Shown here: piece after piece, positions 1,877-9,673 of the stretch
Layout of the letters: each line of letters begins with the position of its first letter
Position numbering within the stretch: the first letter of the stretch is position 1
IMG/VR virus record: IMGVR_UViG_2737471827_000003
Span: 1-20,580 of that record
Source of the DNA: a virus
Taxonomy: Duplodnaviria; Heunggongvirae; Uroviricota; Caudoviricetes
Length of the DNA: 20,580 bases
Strand: one strand, 5' to 3'
Program-made: the position numbers and the translations under genes
Notes under the pieces: generated by a model
Database searches by the model: none
Seen by the model: only the letters and a program-made list of their open reading frames with translations
Told to the model about the DNA's origin: nothing

Positions 1877-1906
1877 GTAAGCGACTCGTCAGAACCGTAT
1901 TGATAT

Positions 1907-3478
1907 TTACTGAGAGCTCAGATCAACTTTCCAGGGCAACAGATCGCGTACCCGGTTTGCCGGCCAGTCCTGGATATGTTCAATGACGTAACGCAGCCAC
2001 TTTTCTGGCTCCACATTGTTCAGACGGCATGTGCCGATCAGCGAGTACAACACCGCCGCATGTTCACCACCGCTGTCGGAACCCGCGAACATCCAGTTTT
2101 TCCGGCCTACGGCCACTCCCCGTAAGGCGTTCTCTGCGATGTTGTTGTCGATTTCCACCCAGCCATTACTGCAGTACACGTTCAGTGCATCCCACTGTTT
2201 CAGCAGGTATGCGAACGCTTTTGCCGTATCTGAGTGACGCGACAGTGTTTTCATCTGTTGCTGTATCCAGTCATACAGTGACTGCATCAGTGGCGCGGCT
2301 CTGGCTTTTCTTGCCGCCAGACGCTGTTCTGCTGAACAGCCCCGGACCTCTGCCTCGATGGCATACAGTTCACCGATACGCTGCAGGGCTTCCGTGGTGA
2401 TGTAGGTGGACGCTCTTGCATGCACATCGTGGATTTTTCTCCGGGCATGAGCCATACACGCGGCTTCCGTTATTCTGCCGGATTCGTATAACGCCCGGTA
2501 ACCACCGTAAGCATCGGCCTGAAGCACACCGCTGTAACCGGCCAGGTGATTTTGTGGATGGATACCTTTCCGGTCCGGACTGTACGCGAACCAGACCGCC
2601 GGGGGCATCTGTGAACCGGCGTTACGGTCATCACGGACGTAGACCCACAGCCGGGCTGTCCGGGTTTTACCGCTGCCCGGCTCCTGGACCGGGACGGGGA
2701 TATCATCAGCATGGACTTTACCGGGCATCAGCACATACTGGCGCAGGACGTCATACAGCGGCTCCAGCAGTTCAGCAACAGCACCTGTCCAGCGCCCCAG
2801 TGTGGCACGGCTCAGCTCCACTCCCTGACGACGGTATATTTCTGACTGGCGGTATAACGGCAGATGGTCTGCATATTTCCCGGTGACAACATGGGCCAGA
2901 AGCCCCGCTCCGGCATAACTGCGTGCAATGGGTTTTGAAGGTACTGGTGCCTGCACGATATGGTCGCACCGGCAACAGGCCTGTTTCGGACGTTGTGTTT
3001 CGATAACCTTAAAGGCGCTGCTGATAAGCTCCAGTTGCTCTGACACATCACATCCCAGAGAACTGAGTTCACCACCACAGGCAGGACAGCATTCCTCTTC
3101 CGGCCGGATAACCCGGGTTTCACGGGGAAGTGAGGCCGGTAACGGTTTACGGGCTGAAGACTGGCGCAGGGCGGATGGCAGTACCGGGTCATATTGCTCA
3201 CCCAGCGTTTCCGCCATTTCTTCCTGAAGTGCGCTGATTCGCTCCTGTGCTTCCTGTATCTGCCGTTCGGTTTTTGCACGAAGTTTTTCTGAGCTTTTAC
3301 CGAACTGCATACGTTGCAGTTTCGCAACCAGCGCCTTCAGCCGGTTGATTTCGGAAGCATAAGCCGCCACCCGCTGTGAGAGCAGGCGGTTGTATTCAGC
3401 CATCTGGCGGATGGTGTCCTGTTGCGTCTGCAACAGTGCCCGCAGGCGGGCGTTCTCATGAGCAAGTGAGGTGTCCAT
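1907..3478 (-). CDS. IS66-family transposase (third and largest ORF of the element)
   Basis: 523 aa with an N-terminal coiled-coil/leucine-zipper region, a CxxC...CxxC cluster, and a central/C-terminal region typical of IS66 TnpC-type transposases. Confidence 0.85.
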
Positions 3479-3497
3479 ATCCTCACTTTACAACGGG

Positions 3498-3845
3498 TTA
3501 TATGCGGATTCCAGCGCGTTCCGTTCGTTTCGGGTGCTTCCAGTTGATACCTTCAAGAAGCATGGATAACTGAGCCGGAGTAAGGTGCACCTTGCCGTCA
3601 CGGGTGACTGGCCAGACGAAGCGGCCCCGCTCCAGGCGTTTGGTGAAGAGGCACAGTCCGTCACTGTCAGCCCACAACACTTTTATCTGGTCACCCCGGC
3701 GTCCGCGGAAGATGAACAGGTGTCCGGAGAACGGGTCATCCTTCAGGACGTTCTGAACTTTTGATGCCAGGCCGTTAAAGCCATTTCGCATATCGGTGAT
3801 ACCTGCAACCAGCCAGATACGCGAACCTGCAGGGAGAGATATCAT
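3498..3845 (-). CDS. IS66-family accessory protein, Orf2/TnpB-like
   Basis: 115 aa, MISLPAGSRIWLVAGITDMRNGFNGLA...; conserved IS66 Orf2 signature; start overlaps the upstream ORF (ATGA). Confidence 0.85.
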   Translation of the reverse strand: MISLPAGSRIWLVAGITDMRNGFNGLASKVQNVLKDDPFSGHLFIFRGRRGDQIKVLWADSDGLCLFTKRLERGRFVWPVTRDGKVHLTPAQLSMLLEGINWKHPKRTERAGIRI

Positions 3846-4522
3846 CAGTGGCTGCTCCCTTTTATTTCGCGGATAAGTGTCTGTAATAACGCCGGCGTCA
3901 GTTTACCTTTAAGCCTGAGAGTTCCGGCCGGCAGAACCAGCTCACAACACAGACTGTCGGACGGTGTATTTATCTGCTCTGGTTCCTGTGCGGGGGCCGG
4001 GATTTTATTATCCGGCTCCGGCGTTAACGTCACGGGAAGCAGTGCCGGCATATTTTTTCCGGAAGGCAGCAGGCCACCTTTCCGGTATTGATGGCGCCAG
4101 TTGAAGAGCAGGTTATCGTTGATTCCGTTTTCCCGGGCGATCTGCGCCACACAGGCTCCGGGCTGCAGTGACTGCTCCACTAAGGCGATTTTAAACTCAT
4201 AAGGGAAGTTGGGCCGCCGGGGACGTTTTTTTACCACGGGGGCTTCGGATATAACGGTGCTTTCAGGACGTACGACTGGTACCGTGGAAAATTGTCCGTA
4301 AAGGCAGGCATCAAGTTCCTGCTCCGACATGCCTGCGGGCAAAGGCCACGAAAGGCCAGCTCTCCGAAAGCGCACGAACATACTACAAACTGTTGATTTT
4401 GGTACACCCAGGCGACGCCCGGCCACAACCCGGGGTAAATGTTCTTCAAAGTGAAGACGTAAAGCTTCAGTGATCCAGGTCCGGTGTTTCATACGATAGT
4501 GTCCATTAAAAATGATGGACAT
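3845..4522 (-). CDS. IS66-family accessory protein, Orf1/TnpA-like, with an N-terminal HTH-like extension (true start uncertain)
   Basis: C-terminal part ...RRPNFPYEFKIALVEQSLQPGACVAQIARENGINDNLLFNWRHQYRKG resembles IS66 Orf1. The 225-aa longest ORF is longer than typical, so an internal start is possible. Confidence 0.65.
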   Translation of the reverse strand: MSIIFNGHYRMKHRTWITEALRLHFEEHLPRVVAGRRLGVPKSTVCSMFVRFRRAGLSWPLPAGMSEQELDACLYGQFSTVPVVRPESTVISEAPVVKKRPRRPNFPYEFKIALVEQSLQPGACVAQIARENGINDNLLFNWRHQYRKGGLLPSGKNMPALLPVTLTPEPDNKIPAPAQEPEQINTPSDSLCCELVLPAGTLRLKGKLTPALLQTLIREIKGSSH

Positions 4523-4575
4523 TATTTTTGTAGAGCCGGAGGAAACAGACCAGACGGTTTAAATGAGCCGGTTAC

Positions 4576-4583
4576 GGTGGAGG
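4576..4583. repeat. Target-site duplication (right copy) GGTGGAGG
   Basis: Identical to 1869-1876. Confidence 0.8.
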
Positions 4584-4659: not shown

Positions 4660-4735
4660 GGCCCTTTAGCTCAGAGGTGAGAGCGAGCGACTCATAATCG
4701 CCAGGTCGCTGGTTCAAATCCAGCAAGGGCCACCA
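4660..4735 (+). tRNA. tRNA-Ile2-like (anticodon CAU, presumably lysidine-modified; formally Met by anticodon)
   Basis: Cloverleaf folded by hand: acceptor GGCCCTT/AAGGGCC, anticodon loop CTCATAA, T-loop TTCAAAT, encoded CCA. Overall strongly resembles E. coli ileX-type tRNA (recalled from memory). Confidence 0.75.
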
Positions 4736-4736
4736 A

Positions 4737-4813
4737 CCGCCACTAGCTCATCAGGAAAGAGCGTCAACCCTTTAAGTTGAGTGTGCGAGGTTCGAGTCCC
4801 CGGTGGCGGTCCA
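4737..4813 (+). tRNA. tRNA, isotype uncertain (anticodon loop CCUUUAA; nominal anticodon UUU, but C at position 33 is atypical)
   Basis: Acceptor CCGCCAC/GTGGCGG, D-stem GCTC/GAGC, anticodon stem TCAAC/GTTGA, T-loop TTCGAGT, encoded CCA; 77 nt. One A:C mismatch in the T-stem. Confidence 0.6.
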
Positions 4814-4815
4814 GT

Positions 4816-4891
<76 letters not shown>

Positions 4892-4894
4892 TAT

Positions 4895-4969
<75 letters not shown>

Positions 4970-5028: not shown

Positions 5029-5100
5029 TTATGAATGATCGCTTTTTTTGCAAAATTGCTGTGCAGAAATACTAACCTTCGGGCAGGCGATCATTCATAA
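5029..5100. repeat. Perfect 14-bp inverted repeat (TTATGAATGATCGC / GCGATCATTCATAA) separated by 44 nt
   Basis: Exact reverse-complement arms at 5029-5042 and 5087-5100. Confidence 0.7.
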
Positions 5101-5176
5101 GCACTCTGCTTTTATTCCGATTAACTGTGGGTGGTTTGTTGGATAGAGTGCTTCCCTTTCTGTATATATCGTTTCG

Positions 5177-5200
5177 CCCGCTTTTGCGGGTTTTTCTTTT
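5177..5200 (+). terminator. Rho-independent terminator-like hairpin upstream of the holin gene
   Basis: Stem CCCGC, loop TTTT, stem GCGGG, followed by TTTTTCTTTT. Confidence 0.6.
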
Positions 5201-5260
5201 CAAATCCCTTTCATTTCTCAGTGTAAAACTACGCCATCCGTTATTTGCGGAGGTGAGGCT

Positions 5261-5476
5261 ATGAAATCCATGGACAAAATTTCAACGGGCATTGCCTATG
5301 GCACCTCCGCAGGCAGTGCTGGCTACTGGTTTTTACAGTGGCTTGATCAGGTCAGTCCGTCACAGTGGGCTGCGATTGGTGTGCTGGGGAGTCTGGTTCT
5401 GGGCTTCCTGACTTATCTGACAAATCTGTACTTCAAAATCAGAGAAGACAAGCGTAAGGCTGCACGGGGAGAGTAA
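5261..5476 (+). CDS. S: Class II holin (pinholin), phage 21 S-like, with dual-start motif M1-K-S-M4
   Basis: 71 aa [30 protein letters not shown]...[35 protein letters not shown], close to the phage 21 S holin as recalled; two transmembrane segments; preceded by GGAGG. Confidence 0.9.
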
Positions 5477-5480
5477 TTCA

Positions 5481-5832
5481 ATGACTCAAAACTATGAACT
5501 GATTGTGAAAGGGATCCGCAATTTTGAGAATAAAGTTACGGTAACTTTAGCGTTACGGGACAAAAAAACGCTTTGACGGTGAAATTTTTGACCTGGACAT
5601 CTCGCTGGACCGTGTTGAAGGTGCCGCGCTGGAGTTTTATGAGGCAGCAGCCAGAAGGAGCATCAGACAGGTCTTCCTGGATGTTGCTGCCGGGTTATGT
5701 GAAGGGGATGAGCAGTCGCCGGAAAAGCGCCCCGTAATTTTAGATGCGCAGAATGTGTGGATAACCTACAAAGGAAAGCTACCAGGAAGAATTACTGGTT
5801 CTCTGAAGACTCCTCCGGAATCACAACCTTAA
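5481..5832 (+). pseudogene. Hypothetical lysis-cassette ORF interrupted by a frameshift in an A7 tract (5562-5568); the two halves together would give about 116 aa
   Basis: Frame 0: ATG 5481 ... MTQNYELIVKGIRNFENKVTVTLALRDKKTL, stop TGA at 5574-5576. The frame offset by one continues without a usable start codon: DGEIFDLDISLDRVEGAALEFYEAAARRSIRQVFLDVAAGLCEGDEQSPEKRPVILDAQNVWITYKGKLPGRITGSLKTPPESQP, stop TAA at 5830-5832. Both pieces fall below the ORF-track threshold. Confidence 0.6.
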
Positions 5833-5895
5833 GTCACTGACCGGAACAGATAAACCTGTCCGTGGGCAGAAACCGATAAATCCTGATAAATATCC

Positions 5896-6429
5896 ATGAA
5901 CGCAAAAATCAGATACGGCCTGTCGGCTGCCGTTCTGGCACTGATTGCCGTCGGTGCGCTCGCGCCTGATATTCTCGACCAGTTTCTGGATGAAAAAGAA
6001 GGTAACCACACAACGGCATACCGCGATGGGTCCGGCATCTGGACCATCTGTCGGGGTGCCACGATGGTGGATGGAAAACCCGTTTTTCCCGGTATGAAAC
6101 TGTCGAAGGAAAAATGCGACCAGGTCAACGCCATTGAGCGTGATAAGGCGCTGGCATGGGTGGAGCGCAATATTAAAGTACCACTGACCGAACCACAAAA
6201 AGCGGGTATCGCGTCATTTTGTCCCTATAACATTGGCCCCGGTAAGTGTTTTCCGTCGACGTTTTATAAGCGGCTGAATGCCGGTGATCGTAAGGGCGCA
6301 TGCGAGGCGATTCGCTGGTGGATAAAAGATGGTGGGCGCGATTGCCGCATACGTTCAAATAACTGCTATGGACAGGTTATTCGTCGTGACCAGGAAAGCG
6401 CATTAGCCTGTTGGGGGATAGATCAGTGA
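5896..6429 (+). CDS. R: Endolysin, T4-lysozyme-type (GH24) with N-terminal SAR (signal-anchor-release) domain
   Basis: 177 aa; weakly hydrophobic Ala/Gly-rich N-terminus ([17 protein letters not shown]) followed by a catalytic E...D...T spacing ([22 protein letters not shown]); paired with a pinholin. Confidence 0.9.
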
Positions 6430-6893
6430 GCAGAGTCGCCGCGATTATTTATGCTCTGGTTATCTGCATCATCGTCTGCCTGTCGTGGGCGGTCAATCAT
6501 TACCGTGATAACGCCATCGCCTACAAAGAACAGCGTGATAAAAAAGTCAGTGAGCTGAAGCTGGCGATCGCCACCATCGCTGACATGCAGCAGCGTCAGC
6601 GTGATGTTGCTGCGCTCGATGCAAAGTACTCGAGAGAATTAGCCAATGCGCAAGCTGAAAATGAAACTCTGCGCGCTGATGTTGCCGCTGGCCGTAAGCG
6701 CCTGCGGGTCAATGCCAGTTGCTCCGCAGCCGTGCGTGAAGCCACCGGACCCACCAGCGTGGATAATGCAACCATCCCCCGACTGGCAGACACCGCTGAA
6801 CGGGATTATTTCACCCTCAGAGACCGATTGATGACGATGCAGATGCAACTGGAAGGGGCGCAGGAATATATCCGCACTCAGTGCATTAAGTAG
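6426..6893 (+). CDS. Rz: Spanin inner-membrane subunit Rz (i-spanin)
   Basis: Translation from GTG 6426, (M)[37 protein letters not shown]..., is near-identical in pattern to lambda Rz; overlaps the endolysin stop. Confidence 0.85.
6646..6831 (+). CDS. Rz1: Spanin outer-membrane lipoprotein Rz1 (o-spanin), nested inside Rz in another frame
   Basis: 61 aa [61 protein letters not shown]; lipobox-like LAVSAC and proline-rich, lambda Rz1-like. Confidence 0.85.
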
Positions 6894-6935
6894 CCTTTTT
6901 ATCGTGGTAAACATTTCGCAGGGTATGAGGTATTT

Positions 6936-7286
6936 ATGCCATCACGAATCCCACGCGCCTGCCGTAAGCGTGGATGTGCAGGTACAACCACAGACAGTTC
7001 TGGTTACTGCGATAAACATCGTGGCGAAGGATGGGTACAGCATCAACGCGGACTGAGCCGCCACCAGCGTGGCTATGGCTCGAAATGGGATGCCATACGT
7101 GCGCGCATACTGAAGCGTGATAATCATCTGTGTCAGAACTGCCTGCGCAATGGGAGAGTCGTTGAAGCCAGAACTGTGGACCACATCATTCCGAAAGCTC
7201 ATGGTGGCACGGATGCAGACAGTAACCTGCAGAGTCTGTGCTGGCCCTGTCATAAAGCAAAAACAGCGCGCGAACGCATCAATTGA
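6936..7286 (+). CDS. HNH endonuclease, phage packaging-associated
   Basis: 116 aa with CxxC...C...H, DHIIPKAHGG...N...LCWPCH (HNH motif); immediately upstream of the terminase genes. Confidence 0.85.
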   Translation: MPSRIPRACRKRGCAGTTTDSSGYCDKHRGEGWVQHQRGLSRHQRGYGSKWDAIRARILKRDNHLCQNCLRNGRVVEARTVDHIIPKAHGGTDADSNLQSLCWPCHKAKTARERIN

Positions 7287-7433
7287 TAACAGTTCCCATC
7301 TGTAGGGGAGGGGCGGGTCAAATCTCTGCAACCCTGGCTGCTCAGTACCGCCGCCTGACCTTTCCTCACATCGCCGCAGGTTCGAAAACTTTTTTTGGAA
7401 ATGTGAACAAACGATTGATAGGTAAAACCGATT

Positions 7434-7916
7434 ATGTCTGGACCCCCGAAAACCCCGCCACGCCTGCATTTGATACGAGGCAACCCCTCAAAGCGCCCCG
7501 TTAAAGACTCAAAAAAAACCGCTAAAAAGGATGAAAAAGGTCTCCCTAAAATTCCGCAACATTTAGGGGCGCAGGGGAAGTACTGGTTCAGGCGAATGGC
7601 AGAAGAACTGAATGCGGAAGGGATCATTTCTCAGCTTGATGCGCGTGCACTCGAGTTACTGGTGGAAGCCTACACCGAATACCGGCATCACTGCGAAACC
7701 CTCGATGTTGAGGGATATACCTACCGCACGGAAACGCAGAACGGTGATGTGCTGATTAAGGCACACCCCGCGGCGGCAATGAAAGCGGATGCCTGGAAGA
7801 GGATCCGGGCGATGCTTGCAGAGTTTGGCATGTCACCGGCAAGCCGGGCTAAAGTAAATATCGCCGGACCGGATGATGTCGATCCGCTGGCGGAGCTTTT
7901 AAAAGCGAGAGACTGA
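7434..7916 (+). CDS. Terminase small subunit (P27-family-like)
   Basis: 160 aa with a basic N-terminus, directly upstream of and overlapping the large terminase. Confidence 0.8.
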   Translation: MSGPPKTPPRLHLIRGNPSKRPVKDSKKTAKKDEKGLPKIPQHLGAQGKYWFRRMAEELNAEGIISQLDARALELLVEAYTEYRHHCETLDVEGYTYRTETQNGDVLIKAHPAAAMKADAWKRIRAMLAEFGMSPASRAKVNIAGPDDVDPLAELLKARD

Positions 7917-9673
7917 TGGCAAAAGTGGCTGACGGGATCCGCTACGCCGAACGTGTTGTTGCAGGAGAAATTGTTGCTGGCGAATTTGTCCGTCTGGCCT
8001 GCCAGCGTTTTCTTGATGATCTGAAGTACGGCGAGAAGCGGGGGATTTATTTCAGTGAACCCCGTGCGCAGCACATCCTGAATTTCTACAAATTTGTGCC
8101 CCATGTGAAAGGGGCGCTGGCAGGCCAGCCCATTGAACTGATGGACTGGCATGTATTTATCCTCATTAATATTTTTGGTTTTGTCATTCCGCTGGTGAAT
8201 GAAGAGACCGGGGAAGTTGTCATGCGCAGCGATGGCAGCGGACGCCCGGTGATGGTGCGCCGGTTCCGGACGGCGTACAACGAAGTCGCCCGTAAAAACG
8301 CAAAATCAACCCTGTCATCGGGTATCGGTCTGTATATGACGGGGGCAGATGGTGAAGGTGGTGCTGAGGTGTATTCAGCCGCAACCACGCGTGATCAGGC
8401 CAGAATCGTGTTTGAAGACGCCAAAAATATGGTCAGAAAAGCCCGGTCGACACTCGGGCGGTTGTTTGACTTCAACAAGTTGGCGATTTACCAGGAGCAG
8501 AGCGCATCAAAATTTGAACCGCTTTCCTCGGATGCAAACAACCTGGACGGTCTGAACATCCACTGTGCCATTATTGATGAGCTGCATGCACATAAAACCC
8601 GCGACGTGTGGGACGTTCTGGAGACGGCAACCGGTGCCCGTCTGCAGTCTCTGTTATTTGGCATCACCACGGCTGGCTTTAACAAGGAAGGGATTTGTTA
8701 CGAGCAGCGTGATTACGCCATCAAGGTATTGCGAGGCTATAACAGCGACGTGGAGGGCGCGGTAAAAGACGACTCCTACTTTGCGATCATTTACACGCTC
8801 GATGAGGGAGATGATCCGTTTGATGAAACGGTCTGGCAGAAAGCGAATCCTGGCCTGGGCATCTGTAAACGCTGGGATGATCTGCGTCGTCTGGCGAAAA
8901 AAGCGAAGGAGCAGGTCTCTGCGCGGGTAAATTTTTTTACCAAACACATGAATGTGTGGGTCACTGCCGAATCTGCCTGGATGGATATGATTAAGTGGGA
9001 GAAGTGCGAATACATTGCTCCACAACATGAGCTGAAAACATATCCCATGTGGGTCGGCGTCGACCTTGCTCATAAGATTGATATCTGTGCGGCGGCAAAA
9101 CTCTGGCGAACCGATAACGGACATGTTCATGCTGATTTTAAATTCTGGCTTCCGGAAGGACGGCTGGAACGATGCTCGCGGCAGCAGGCAGAACTTTACC
9201 GGAAGTGGGCGGAGATGGATAAGCTCATCCTGACGGATGGTGATGTTATCGATCATGCTCAGATAAAAAGTGACTTACTGGAATGGATTGGCGGTGAAAA
9301 CCTCAGGGAACTGGGATTTGACCCGTGGAGCGCAATGCAGTTCAGCCTGGCACTGGCTGAAGAAGGGATACCGCTGGTGGAGGTTCCGCAGACGGTCCGC
9401 AATCTGTCAGAGGCCATGAAGGAAACGGAATCACTGGTTTATGCCGGGCGTTTCCATCACAGCAATCATCCGGTCATGAACTGGATGATGTCTAACGTTA
9501 CTGTAAAACCGGACAAAAACGACAACATCTTCCCGAATAAATCCACGCCTGAAGCCAAAATCGACGGCCCTGTTGCACTTTTTACGGCCATGAGCCGCTT
9601 TCTGGTAAATGGCGGGGACGTGAATGACTTTCTGTCCACGCTTGATCCTGATGAGGACCTGTTAATTCTGTGA
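7916..9673 (+). CDS. Terminase large subunit
   Basis: 585 aa, with an N-terminal ATPase region and a C-terminal nuclease region; position between small terminase and portal. Confidence 0.85.
   Translation: MAKVADGIRYAERVVAGEIVAGEFVRLACQRFLDDLKYGEKRGIYFSEPRAQHILNFYKFVPHVKGALAGQPIELMDWHVFILINIFGFVIPLVNEETGEVVMRSDGSGRPVMVRRFRTAYNEVARKNAKSTLSSGIGLYMTGADGEGGAEVYSAATTRDQARIVFEDAKNMVRKARSTLGRLFDFNKLAIYQEQSASKFEPLSSDANNLDGLNIHCAIIDELHAHKTRDVWDVLETATGARLQSLLFGITTAGFNKEGICYEQRDYAIKVLRGYNSDVEGAVKDDSYFAIIYTLDEGDDPFDETVWQKANPGLGICKRWDDLRRLAKKAKEQVSARVNFFTKHMNVWVTAESAWMDMIKWEKCEYIAPQHELKTYPMWVGVDLAHKIDICAAAKLWRTDNGHVHADFKFWLPEGRLERCSRQQAELYRKWAEMDKLILTDGDVIDHAQIKSDLLEWIGGENLRELGFDPWSAMQFSLALAEEGIPLVEVPQTVRNLSEAMKETESLVYAGRFHHSNHPVMNWMMSNVTVKPDKNDNIFPNKSTPEAKIDGPVALFTAMSRFLVNGGDVNDFLSTLDPDEDLLIL

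Follow-up and report, generated by a model that had tools for sequence, protein, structure and literature searches.

A predicted pinholin/SAR-endolysin lysis cassette with an S21-type holin and a 933W/RrrQ-type endolysin in an Escherichia coli lambdoid prophage

Introduction

Lyz of phage P1 was the first SAR endolysin to be described; its activation proceeds by disulfide isomerization, for which a Cys inside the SAR domain is used. SAR endolysins have two to three basic residues at their start, followed by a TMD composed mainly of weakly hydrophobic residues, and three cloned members have each been found to turn a fraction of cells into spheres when present alone, and a larger fraction together with the Mu releasin (PMC9239132). 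The plasmid pZE12-933W-R is listed in the same work from the Young laboratory as "phage 933W SAR endolysin" (PMC9239132). Typical partners of these enzymes, which are exported by the host sec machinery, are the pinholins, whose pinholes have a lumen of ~2 nm, as opposed to the micron-scale holes through which cytoplasmic endolysins escape; S21 of phage 21 does not complement lambda S, and its channels are heptamers of ~2 nm (PMC9636201). A predicted SAR endolysin together with a pinholin was encountered in 99% of the Stx phages analyzed (PMC8136144). The pinholin/SAR-endolysin system is thus already known (PMC9636201, PMC8136144), and it is extremely common in E. coli prophages.

Here we describe a locus in an E. 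coli lambdoid prophage that we read, with a probability of about 0.9, as its late-operon lysis cassette, working by the pinholin/SAR-endolysin pathway. Its holin is nearly that of phage 21 and its endolysin is of the type found in the Stx2 phage 933W, with a frameshifted third gene, ydfR, lying between the two.

Prophage Setting and Gene Order

The window, by which we mean the whole stretch of 20,580 nt analyzed, covers positions 1-20,580 of the Caudoviricetes virus record IMGVR_UViG_2737471827_000003. It is a portion of an E. coli lambdoid prophage carrying HK97-like head genes, and the lysis cassette is embedded in the following features:

52-690, + strand: DUF968
691-1056, + strand: RusA
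1053-1742, + strand: antiterminator Q
1726-1754: pR'-like promoter, predicted
1806-1835: tR'-like terminator, predicted
1877-4575, - strand: IS66-family (ISCro1-like) element of 2,699 bp with an 8-bp target duplication, GGTGGAGG
4660-4969, + strand: four tRNAs
6936-7286, + strand: HNH endonuclease
7434-7916, + strand: P27-family small terminase
from 7916, + strand: large terminase and HK97-type head genes

The cassette itself runs on the + strand in the order S (with its dual start), ydfR (broken), R, and Rz with Rz1 embedded in it. The holin, the frameshifted ORF and the endolysin of the first-pass annotation were all recovered within its coordinates, 5261-6429. With a query of 1,851 nt across the cassette (5100-6950), prophages in many complete E. 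coli genomes align at 99.4-99.8% identity; 5,317 of 5,426 such genomes gave at least a partial match, and in 1,648 of them the query was covered to at least 80%. An Rfam scan of the window matched nothing beyond the four tRNAs, and none of the cassette proteins reached the cutoff of any NCBIfam family.

The Holin Gene and Its Dual Start

The cassette opens with the S gene and its translation signals:

5249-5253, + strand: Shine-Dalgarno sequence GGAGG for the holin dual start (from the sequence and the spacing in phage 21)
5255-5258, + strand: second GAGG near the holin start
5261-5476, + strand: S gene, long product of 71 aa, putative antiholin form, start at Met1-Lys2 (PF04971, S21 identity, PHROG holin families)
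5270-5476, + strand: S gene, short product of 68 aa, putative active pinholin form, start at Met4 (second ATG = codon 4; phage 21 annotation)

In Pfam, the S product matches PF04971, "Bacteriophage P21 holin S" (E = 1.4e-35, 121.5 bits, cutoff 26), and no class I holin family, the sole other match falling under its cutoff. A match of this strength reflects homology and not chance. Alignment with S21 of the curated phage 21 genome OL657228 gave identity at 70 of 71 positions (99%), with the single difference, R64K, located in the cytoplasmic tail. According to hydropathy, TMD1 (residues 8-27) is very weakly hydrophobic (KD 0.16, 60% A/G/S/T) and TMD2 (residues 36-58) is a normal transmembrane segment (KD 1.5); both are identical to the corresponding segments of S21. 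This agrees with the general layout of S21-type pinholins, which at ~70 aa have a SAR-like first TMD and a stable second one with the Gly/Ser face. Judged by family match and alignment, the S product is a class II holin of the pinholin type, essentially the phage 21 prototype. At 99% identity to S21, it would be expected to form heptameric pinholes of ~2 nm that depolarize the membrane without releasing a cytoplasmic endolysin. One might argue that hole size is not readable from sequence, and that the holin could form canonical large holes of the class I or lambda type, the hydrophobic N-terminus of the endolysin then being incidental. Beyond that argument we found nothing in favor of large holes, and we consider them extremely improbable, as the near-identical S21 itself fails to complement lambda S and makes channels of ~2 nm (PMC9636201), no class I holin family was matched in Pfam, and the 71-aa protein has two TMDs, not three.

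The first-pass annotation had read the N-terminal M-K-S-M as the dual-start arrangement of phage 21. The motif is indeed encoded at 5261-5272, and the context agrees with this reading: GGAGG lies 7 nt upstream of ATG1, a spacing equal to that of the RBS annotated in phage 21 (2489-2493 of its sequence), and the phage 21 record OL657228, to whose S21 the protein is so close, annotates both S21-71 (antipinholin, Met1) and S21-68 (pinholin, Met4). MKSM is not universal among the family, since 933W has MYQM, phage 434 is without Met1, and MRM or MYRM occurs in ZF40 and in Klebsiella phages. To judge from its first codons, the window holin retains the prototype phage 21 start arrangement, and both starts belong in the annotation of the S gene.

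The region around the dual start can also be folded. In an 86-nt fold (dG -26 kcal/mol, z -2.1), a perfect helix forms between GCGGAGGUG (5247-5255) and CACCUCCGC (5302-5310), the latter within holin codons 14-17. We considered this helix as a conserved, SD-sequestering RNA switch and rejected it: the pairing is lacking in the phage 21 allele as well as in the 933W, 434, 2H10 and Klebsiella alleles, it tracks haplotype and is not maintained by compensatory changes, and in a 96-nt fold it is outcompeted by a local hairpin.

The Endolysin and Its N-Terminal Segment

The endolysin gene R forms the distal part of the holin-endolysin pair:

5896-6429, + strand: endolysin R, 177 aa, 933W/RrrQ-type muramidase with a predicted N-terminal SAR domain (PF00959, 933W R identity)
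5914-5967, + strand: predicted SAR segment, codons 7-24, following the basic N-terminus MNAKIR (composition, hydropathy, homologs)

R matches the Pfam family Phage_lysozyme (PF00959) with E = 1.4e-24. It is 92% identical to R of the Stx2 phage 933W across all 177 residues, the N-terminal segment included, and in near-identical prophages the gene carries the RefSeq name rrrQ. With R21, a BLASTP alignment over residues 32-174 yielded 34% identity. The best hit of a PDB sequence search was 7m5i (phage FAHEc1 endolysin), and R21 (3hde, E = 2.3e-16) and the DLP12 endolysin RrrD (4zpu) were matched as well, in alignments that start at residue 12 and so take in the N-terminal segment. The putative catalytic triad E35/D44/T50, arranged as Glu-8aa-Asp-5aa-Thr, aligns with E35/D44/T50 of R21; the first two residues never vary among 32 Enterobacteriaceae homologs, 31 of which also have Thr at position 50. 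An AF2 model of the endolysin (pLDDT 82 overall) found 7m5i at rank 1, 9kbs, and full-length R21 (3hde) at rank 5 among its fold matches. By its alignments, R is a T4-type lysozyme of the 933W/RrrQ type and not an R21 ortholog, and we suggest that it be annotated as a SAR endolysin of that type. The earlier description of the two genes as a phage 21-type pair holds for the holin but has to be corrected for the endolysin.

The N-terminus was evaluated by hydropathy scales and the -3/-1/+1 rule. MNAKIR carries two basic residues, K4 and R6, and is followed by an uncharged run of 18 residues (50% A/G/S/T, mean KD 1.91) that is conserved in the 32 homologs. For comparison, the corresponding values are 62% and KD 1.39 for R21 and 50% and KD 1.48 for P1 Lyz, in both of which the hydrophobic run extends over 24 residues; the SAR segments of these two enzymes are comparable to it in hydropathy, and relative to R21, the run of the window endolysin is less Gly-rich and richer in Leu, Ile and Val. 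On these measures of hydropathy and composition, a hydrophobic, SAR-like segment is present, as the first-pass annotation had proposed when it spoke of a weakly hydrophobic, Ala/Gly-rich SAR domain, and this N-terminus agrees with the published description of SAR endolysins (PMC9239132). Neither the window endolysin nor any of the 32 homologs has a Cys before residue 52; lacking a Cys in the SAR segment, regulation would follow the refolding mode of R21 rather than the disulfide mode of P1 Lyz.

The segment closes with A-L-A followed by Pro24, and together with MNAKIR and a hydrophobic core of ~16 residues this gives a layout resembling the n-, h- and c-regions of a signal peptide, with A-L-A at -3/-1. 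R might accordingly be a soluble periplasmic enzyme with an ordinary cleavable Sec signal peptide, neither tethered nor released, and 11 of the 32 homologs, found in other Enterobacteriaceae, have Ser or Thr behind A-x-A, which would be compatible with cleavage. However, by the established -3/-1/+1 rule signal peptidase I does not cleave in front of a Pro at +1, and Pro is what follows A-x-A here and in the other 21 homologs. With A-L-A preceding Pro24, the endolysin is unlikely to be cleaved by signal peptidase I. Moreover, a secreted muramidase without regulation would cause premature lysis, and the 92%-identical 933W R is treated as a SAR endolysin. The AF2 model points in the same direction, with a pLDDT of ~95 for residues 11-30 and alignments over ~180 columns with full-length R21 (3hde) and RrrD versus 140 with truncated R21 (3hdf), which is consistent with the N-terminal segment being folded into the enzyme, as it is in active R21. 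Taken together, we regard a cleavable signal peptide as very improbable and favor an uncleaved SAR segment. Composition and the 92% identity to 933W R suggest that the protein would remain tethered to the membrane and be released from it. The spheres observed with 933W R also lend support to a holin-independent export of such a closely related protein.

Pairing of Holin and Endolysin

We compared gene order at 80 IMG/VR loci whose holin is at least 90% identical to that of the window, plus reference loci and the window itself. Among the 79 informative cassettes, S was followed directly by an R21-type endolysin in 29, and the remaining 50 had the order S, ydfR, 933W/RrrQ-type endolysin. The claim that holin and endolysin form a coherent pinholin/SAR-endolysin pair is well supported by this recurrence in 50 of 79 cassettes, and the same pairing is known from Stx phages (PMC8136144). 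With pinholes of only ~2 nm, the partner endolysin of this holin would need an export route of its own; the pinholin partnership thereby provides an independent argument that the 933W/RrrQ type of endolysin is secretory. In view of this pairing and of the identity to 933W R, Sec export of R, its tethering in an inactive state and its release upon loss of the proton-motive force appear probable.

The Broken ydfR Gene between S and R

The frameshifted ORF noted earlier within the pair is present and can be resolved as follows:

5481-5833, + strand: ydfR (DUF1327) pseudogene, frame 0 over 5481-5576 and +1 frame thereafter to 5833 (Pfam DUF1327 for both pieces)
5562-5568, + strand: A7 homopolymer, site of the +1-base frameshift (alignment; A6 in intact alleles)

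The first frame (5481-5576) stops after 31 aa and the continuation in the +1 frame extends from 5572 to 5833; the two pieces match profile positions 1-29 and 31-92 of PF07041 (DUF1327), and neither amounts to an intact YdfR/DUF1327 ORF (~104-116 aa, or 176-183 aa in the long form). As for the statement that this ORF interrupts the pair, it is a separate gene that breaks neither S nor R, with a 62-nt spacer separating it from R. Of two near-identical prophages aligned with the window, the one in strain QA-1986 630 has the same A7 tract, and the one in strain GXU-23-25-310 has A6 and an intact gene of 116 aa. RefSeq labels the identical allele "YdfR family protein, frameshifted", and at least 22 records of complete E. 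coli genomes, strain 042 included, out of 3,294 with ydfR, contain an identical 71-nt A7 allele. Its occurrence in 22 independent complete genomes led us to reject a sequencing artifact. Programmed frameshifting was rejected as well: it would need a +1 shift on AAA AAA A, no stop or rare codon follows, and 41 of the 43 ydfR loci surveyed have A6 and an intact gene. We therefore treat the A7 tract as a mutation rather than as recoding, and ydfR should be annotated as a pseudogene in this prophage.

The ydfR family is small, with 313 clusters at E <= 0.001 whose named matches are nearly all from Escherichia or Shigella, and PHROGs lists its function as unknown. The AF2 model of YdfR is poor (pLDDT 57.5), and it matched no fold in the PDB (best E = 0.037, TM ~0.26). 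The position of the gene might suggest that YdfR helps to regulate the pinholin/SAR-endolysin cassette as an accessory factor, with the A6/A7 tract as a recurrent on/off switch: ydfR separates S from R in all 50 RrrQ-type S21 cassettes and in none of the 29 R21-type ones, and at least 22 complete genomes share the A7 null allele. [quoted passage not shown] We hold a regulatory role to be improbable, since the family is confined almost wholly to Escherichia and Shigella and since 933W has the same endolysin type and no ydfR, which indicates that ydfR is dispensable for this lysis system.

Spanins and Expression of the Cassette

The spanin genes follow directly on R:

6426-6893, + strand: Rz (i-spanin), GTG start overlapping the R stop codon (PF03245, E = 1.2e-46)
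6646-6831, + strand: Rz1 (o-spanin lipoprotein), within Rz in the +1 frame (PF06085, E = 4.7e-18)

Both are intact and have the features of a two-component spanin, namely an N-terminal TMD in Rz (residues 4-26, KD 2.09) and a lipobox, ...AVSAC, in the Rz1 translation. In a near-identical prophage, RefSeq annotates a "lysis protein" at the position of Rz.

Expression of the lysis genes in this prophage is uncertain, given the 2.7-kb IS66-family element upstream. It is inserted downstream of the pR'-like promoter and the tR'-like terminator and upstream of the tRNAs and S, such that late transcription has to cross it, and by separating the cassette from the antiterminator and the late promoter it may affect inducibility. 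The exact IS junction had no match in 5,426 complete E. coli genomes. This insertion, along with the frameshift in ydfR, could be taken to mean that the cassette is a silent, decaying remnant, in which the late operon is interrupted, passenger genes are mutating and the lysis genes no longer fire. However, none of the four genes S, R, Rz and Rz1 is shortened, each differs little from its functional reference, and the downstream head and packaging genes are collinear with, and 98.5% identical to, those of a prophage without the IS interruption. Q-modified RNA polymerase reads through terminators in lambdoid phages, so that an insert of 2.7 kb need not abolish late transcription, and the loss of ydfR should not affect lysis, considering that phage 21 and 933W do without this gene. 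In our view, a remnant is unlikely, though less so than the other alternatives considered here, and it would bear on expression only, leaving the gene identities unchanged.

Proposed Lysis Mechanism

The mechanism outlined here is carried over from the phage 21 model (PMC9636201) and set against the gene content, identities, catalytic residues and segment composition observed at this locus. The S mRNA would be translated from both Met1 and Met4. The 68-aa product starting at Met4 is expected to insert as two transmembrane helices, after which the weakly hydrophobic TMD1 would exit the bilayer and TMD2 assemble into heptameric pinholes of ~2 nm. In the 71-aa product starting at Met1, the extra Lys would keep TMD1 in the membrane, making this form an antiholin that delays triggering. 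R would meanwhile be exported by Sec and kept tethered and inactive by its N-terminal SAR helix. Collapse of the proton-motive force through the pinholes would then allow the SAR helix to exit the membrane and R to refold, as in the R21 mode, and the refolded enzyme could cleave peptidoglycan with its Glu35/Asp44/Thr50 site. The Rz/Rz1 spanin would disrupt the outer membrane last. In this scheme, ydfR would be a non-essential passenger gene, inactivated here by a one-base homopolymer expansion.

The prophage thus carries a complete module for the pinholin pathway, comprising an S21-type pinholin and antiholin, a 933W-type SAR endolysin and Rz/Rz1. The same kind of module frees phage from E. 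coli and, in Stx phages, Shiga toxin as well. For the locus at hand, the finding matters little beyond correct annotation.

Comparison with Known Systems

One known system for comparison is P1 Lyz. It resembles the window endolysin in its weakly hydrophobic SAR segment of similar hydropathy and in its T4-lysozyme-like fold, and its structure (1xjt) ranked 21st among the fold matches of the endolysin model, with 15% identity in the structural alignment. It differs in using a Cys of the SAR domain, the window endolysin and its 32 homologs having none before residue 52.

On the endolysin side, the counterpart is the rrrQ-type lysozyme of 933W and of the K-12 Qin prophage, with 92% identity to 933W R and the RefSeq name rrrQ for the gene. 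The remainder of the 933W cassette departs from that of the window: its holin is 76% identical, starts with MYQM and has no basic residue between the two Met, there is no ydfR between S and R, and an ant gene lies between R and Rz.

Phage 21 (S21/R21/Rz/Rz1; also DLP12 essD-rrrD) is the counterpart on the holin side, with 70 of 71 residues, the MKSM start and the SD spacing in common, and its lysis cassette likewise continues with Rz and an embedded Rz1. R21 shares with the window endolysin the fold, the E35/D44/T50 triad and an uncharged, Ala/Gly-rich N-terminal segment without Cys. In contrast, the window endolysin is only 34% identical to R21, is 12 residues longer, has a hydrophobic run of 18 instead of 24 residues and contains four extra invariant Cys (109, 118, 150, 157); furthermore, the R start overlaps the S stop in phage 21, whereas ydfR and the 62-nt spacer intervene in the window. 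The cassette is therefore an S21 pinholin joined to a 933W/RrrQ endolysin module rather than a pure phage 21 cassette.

Linkage of ydfR to the endolysin type

In cassettes with an S21-like holin gene (IMG/VR loci L004-L083), ydfR, the DUF1327 gene that lies between S and R in the window, accompanied an endolysin gene of the 933W/RrrQ type in 50 of 50 cases and one of the R21 type in none of 29. Because of this strict association, our data suggest that ydfR and R constitute a single recombination module and move together. The frameshifted A7 allele of ydfR (5562-5568; intact alleles have A6) is not private to the window, as an identical 71-nt stretch is shared by 22 complete E. coli genome records, strain 042 and several APEC strains among them. 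In additional records, all 71 bases aligned gap-free with one mismatch; since the match contains no gap, these records, judged by sequence, probably have the A7 allele as well.

The endolysin R

A 62-nt spacer (5834-5895) lies upstream of R, and no Shine-Dalgarno sequence was recognizable in it. The protein (5896-6429) has eight cysteines (residues 52, 74, 109, 118, 136, 150, 157, and 172) that are invariant among the 32 RrrQ-type endolysins. Four of them align with cysteine counterparts in R21, whereas 109, 118, 150, and 157 are extra; the latter lie within or adjoin low-confidence blocks of the AlphaFold2 model (residues 111-120 and 141-160) and might form additional periplasmic disulfides. 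At the position of R residue 24, which follows an A-x-A motif, Pro gives way to Ser/Thr in 11 of the 32 homologues, among them proteins of Citrobacter, Klebsiella, Salmonella, and Yokenella. Going by the alignment, these 11 proteins could have a cleavable signal peptide at the N-terminus in place of a SAR domain.

The start of S and the region between Q and S

The Shine-Dalgarno region of S (5247-5255) is perfectly complementary over 9 nt to 5302-5310 (holin codons 14-17), or over 12 nt if G-U pairs are counted. This pairing is probably not a conserved regulatory element, as it is missing from the alleles of phage 21, 933W, 434, and 2H10 and of Klebsiella, and is out-competed by a local hairpin when a longer fold of the S start is considered.

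Two features were located upstream of S:

4660-4969: four-gene tRNA array (between Q and S)
5176-5200, plus strand: GC-rich hairpin (GCCCGC-TTTT-GCGGGT) with a T-run behind it, some 70 nt ahead of S

The array comprises a tRNA with a CAT anticodon (Met according to ARAGORN, but tRNA-Ile in the RefSeq annotation), Lys-TTT, Thr-TGT, and Gly-TCC. The hairpin is terminator-like and could, in the lysogen, keep transcription of the tRNA genes from running on into the lysis genes.

Insertion element and packaging module

An insertion element occupies the following positions:

1877-4575, minus strand: IS66-family (ISCro1-like) element, 2,699 bp
3845-4522, minus strand: tnpA
3498-3845, minus strand: tnpB
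1907-3478, minus strand: tnpC
1869-1876 and 4576-4583: flanking 8-bp target duplication GGTGGAGG

Q, a pR'-like promoter, and a tR'-like terminator lie on its upstream side, the tRNA/lysis region on its downstream side. The insertion site is empty in the near-identical prophage of strain QA-1986 630, and the junction had no match among 5,426 complete E. coli genomes.

Farther downstream, one further group was identified:

within 6936-9673: HNH endonuclease gene, immediately followed by the genes for the P27-family small terminase and the large terminase

The terminase genes are followed by those for the portal, the HK97 prohead protease, and the major capsid protein; the whole corresponds to the HNH-assisted packaging module usual in HK97-like phages.

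Comparison with known lysis regions

Phage 21 carries a different tRNA pair (Asn, Thr) at the position equivalent to the four-tRNA array. In phages 21 and 434, the S stop overlaps the R start (translational coupling), unlike the spaced arrangement in the window. In phage 933W (L084), an endolysin gene of the 933W/RrrQ type comes immediately after S and ydfR is absent, in contrast to the S-ydfR-R cassettes.
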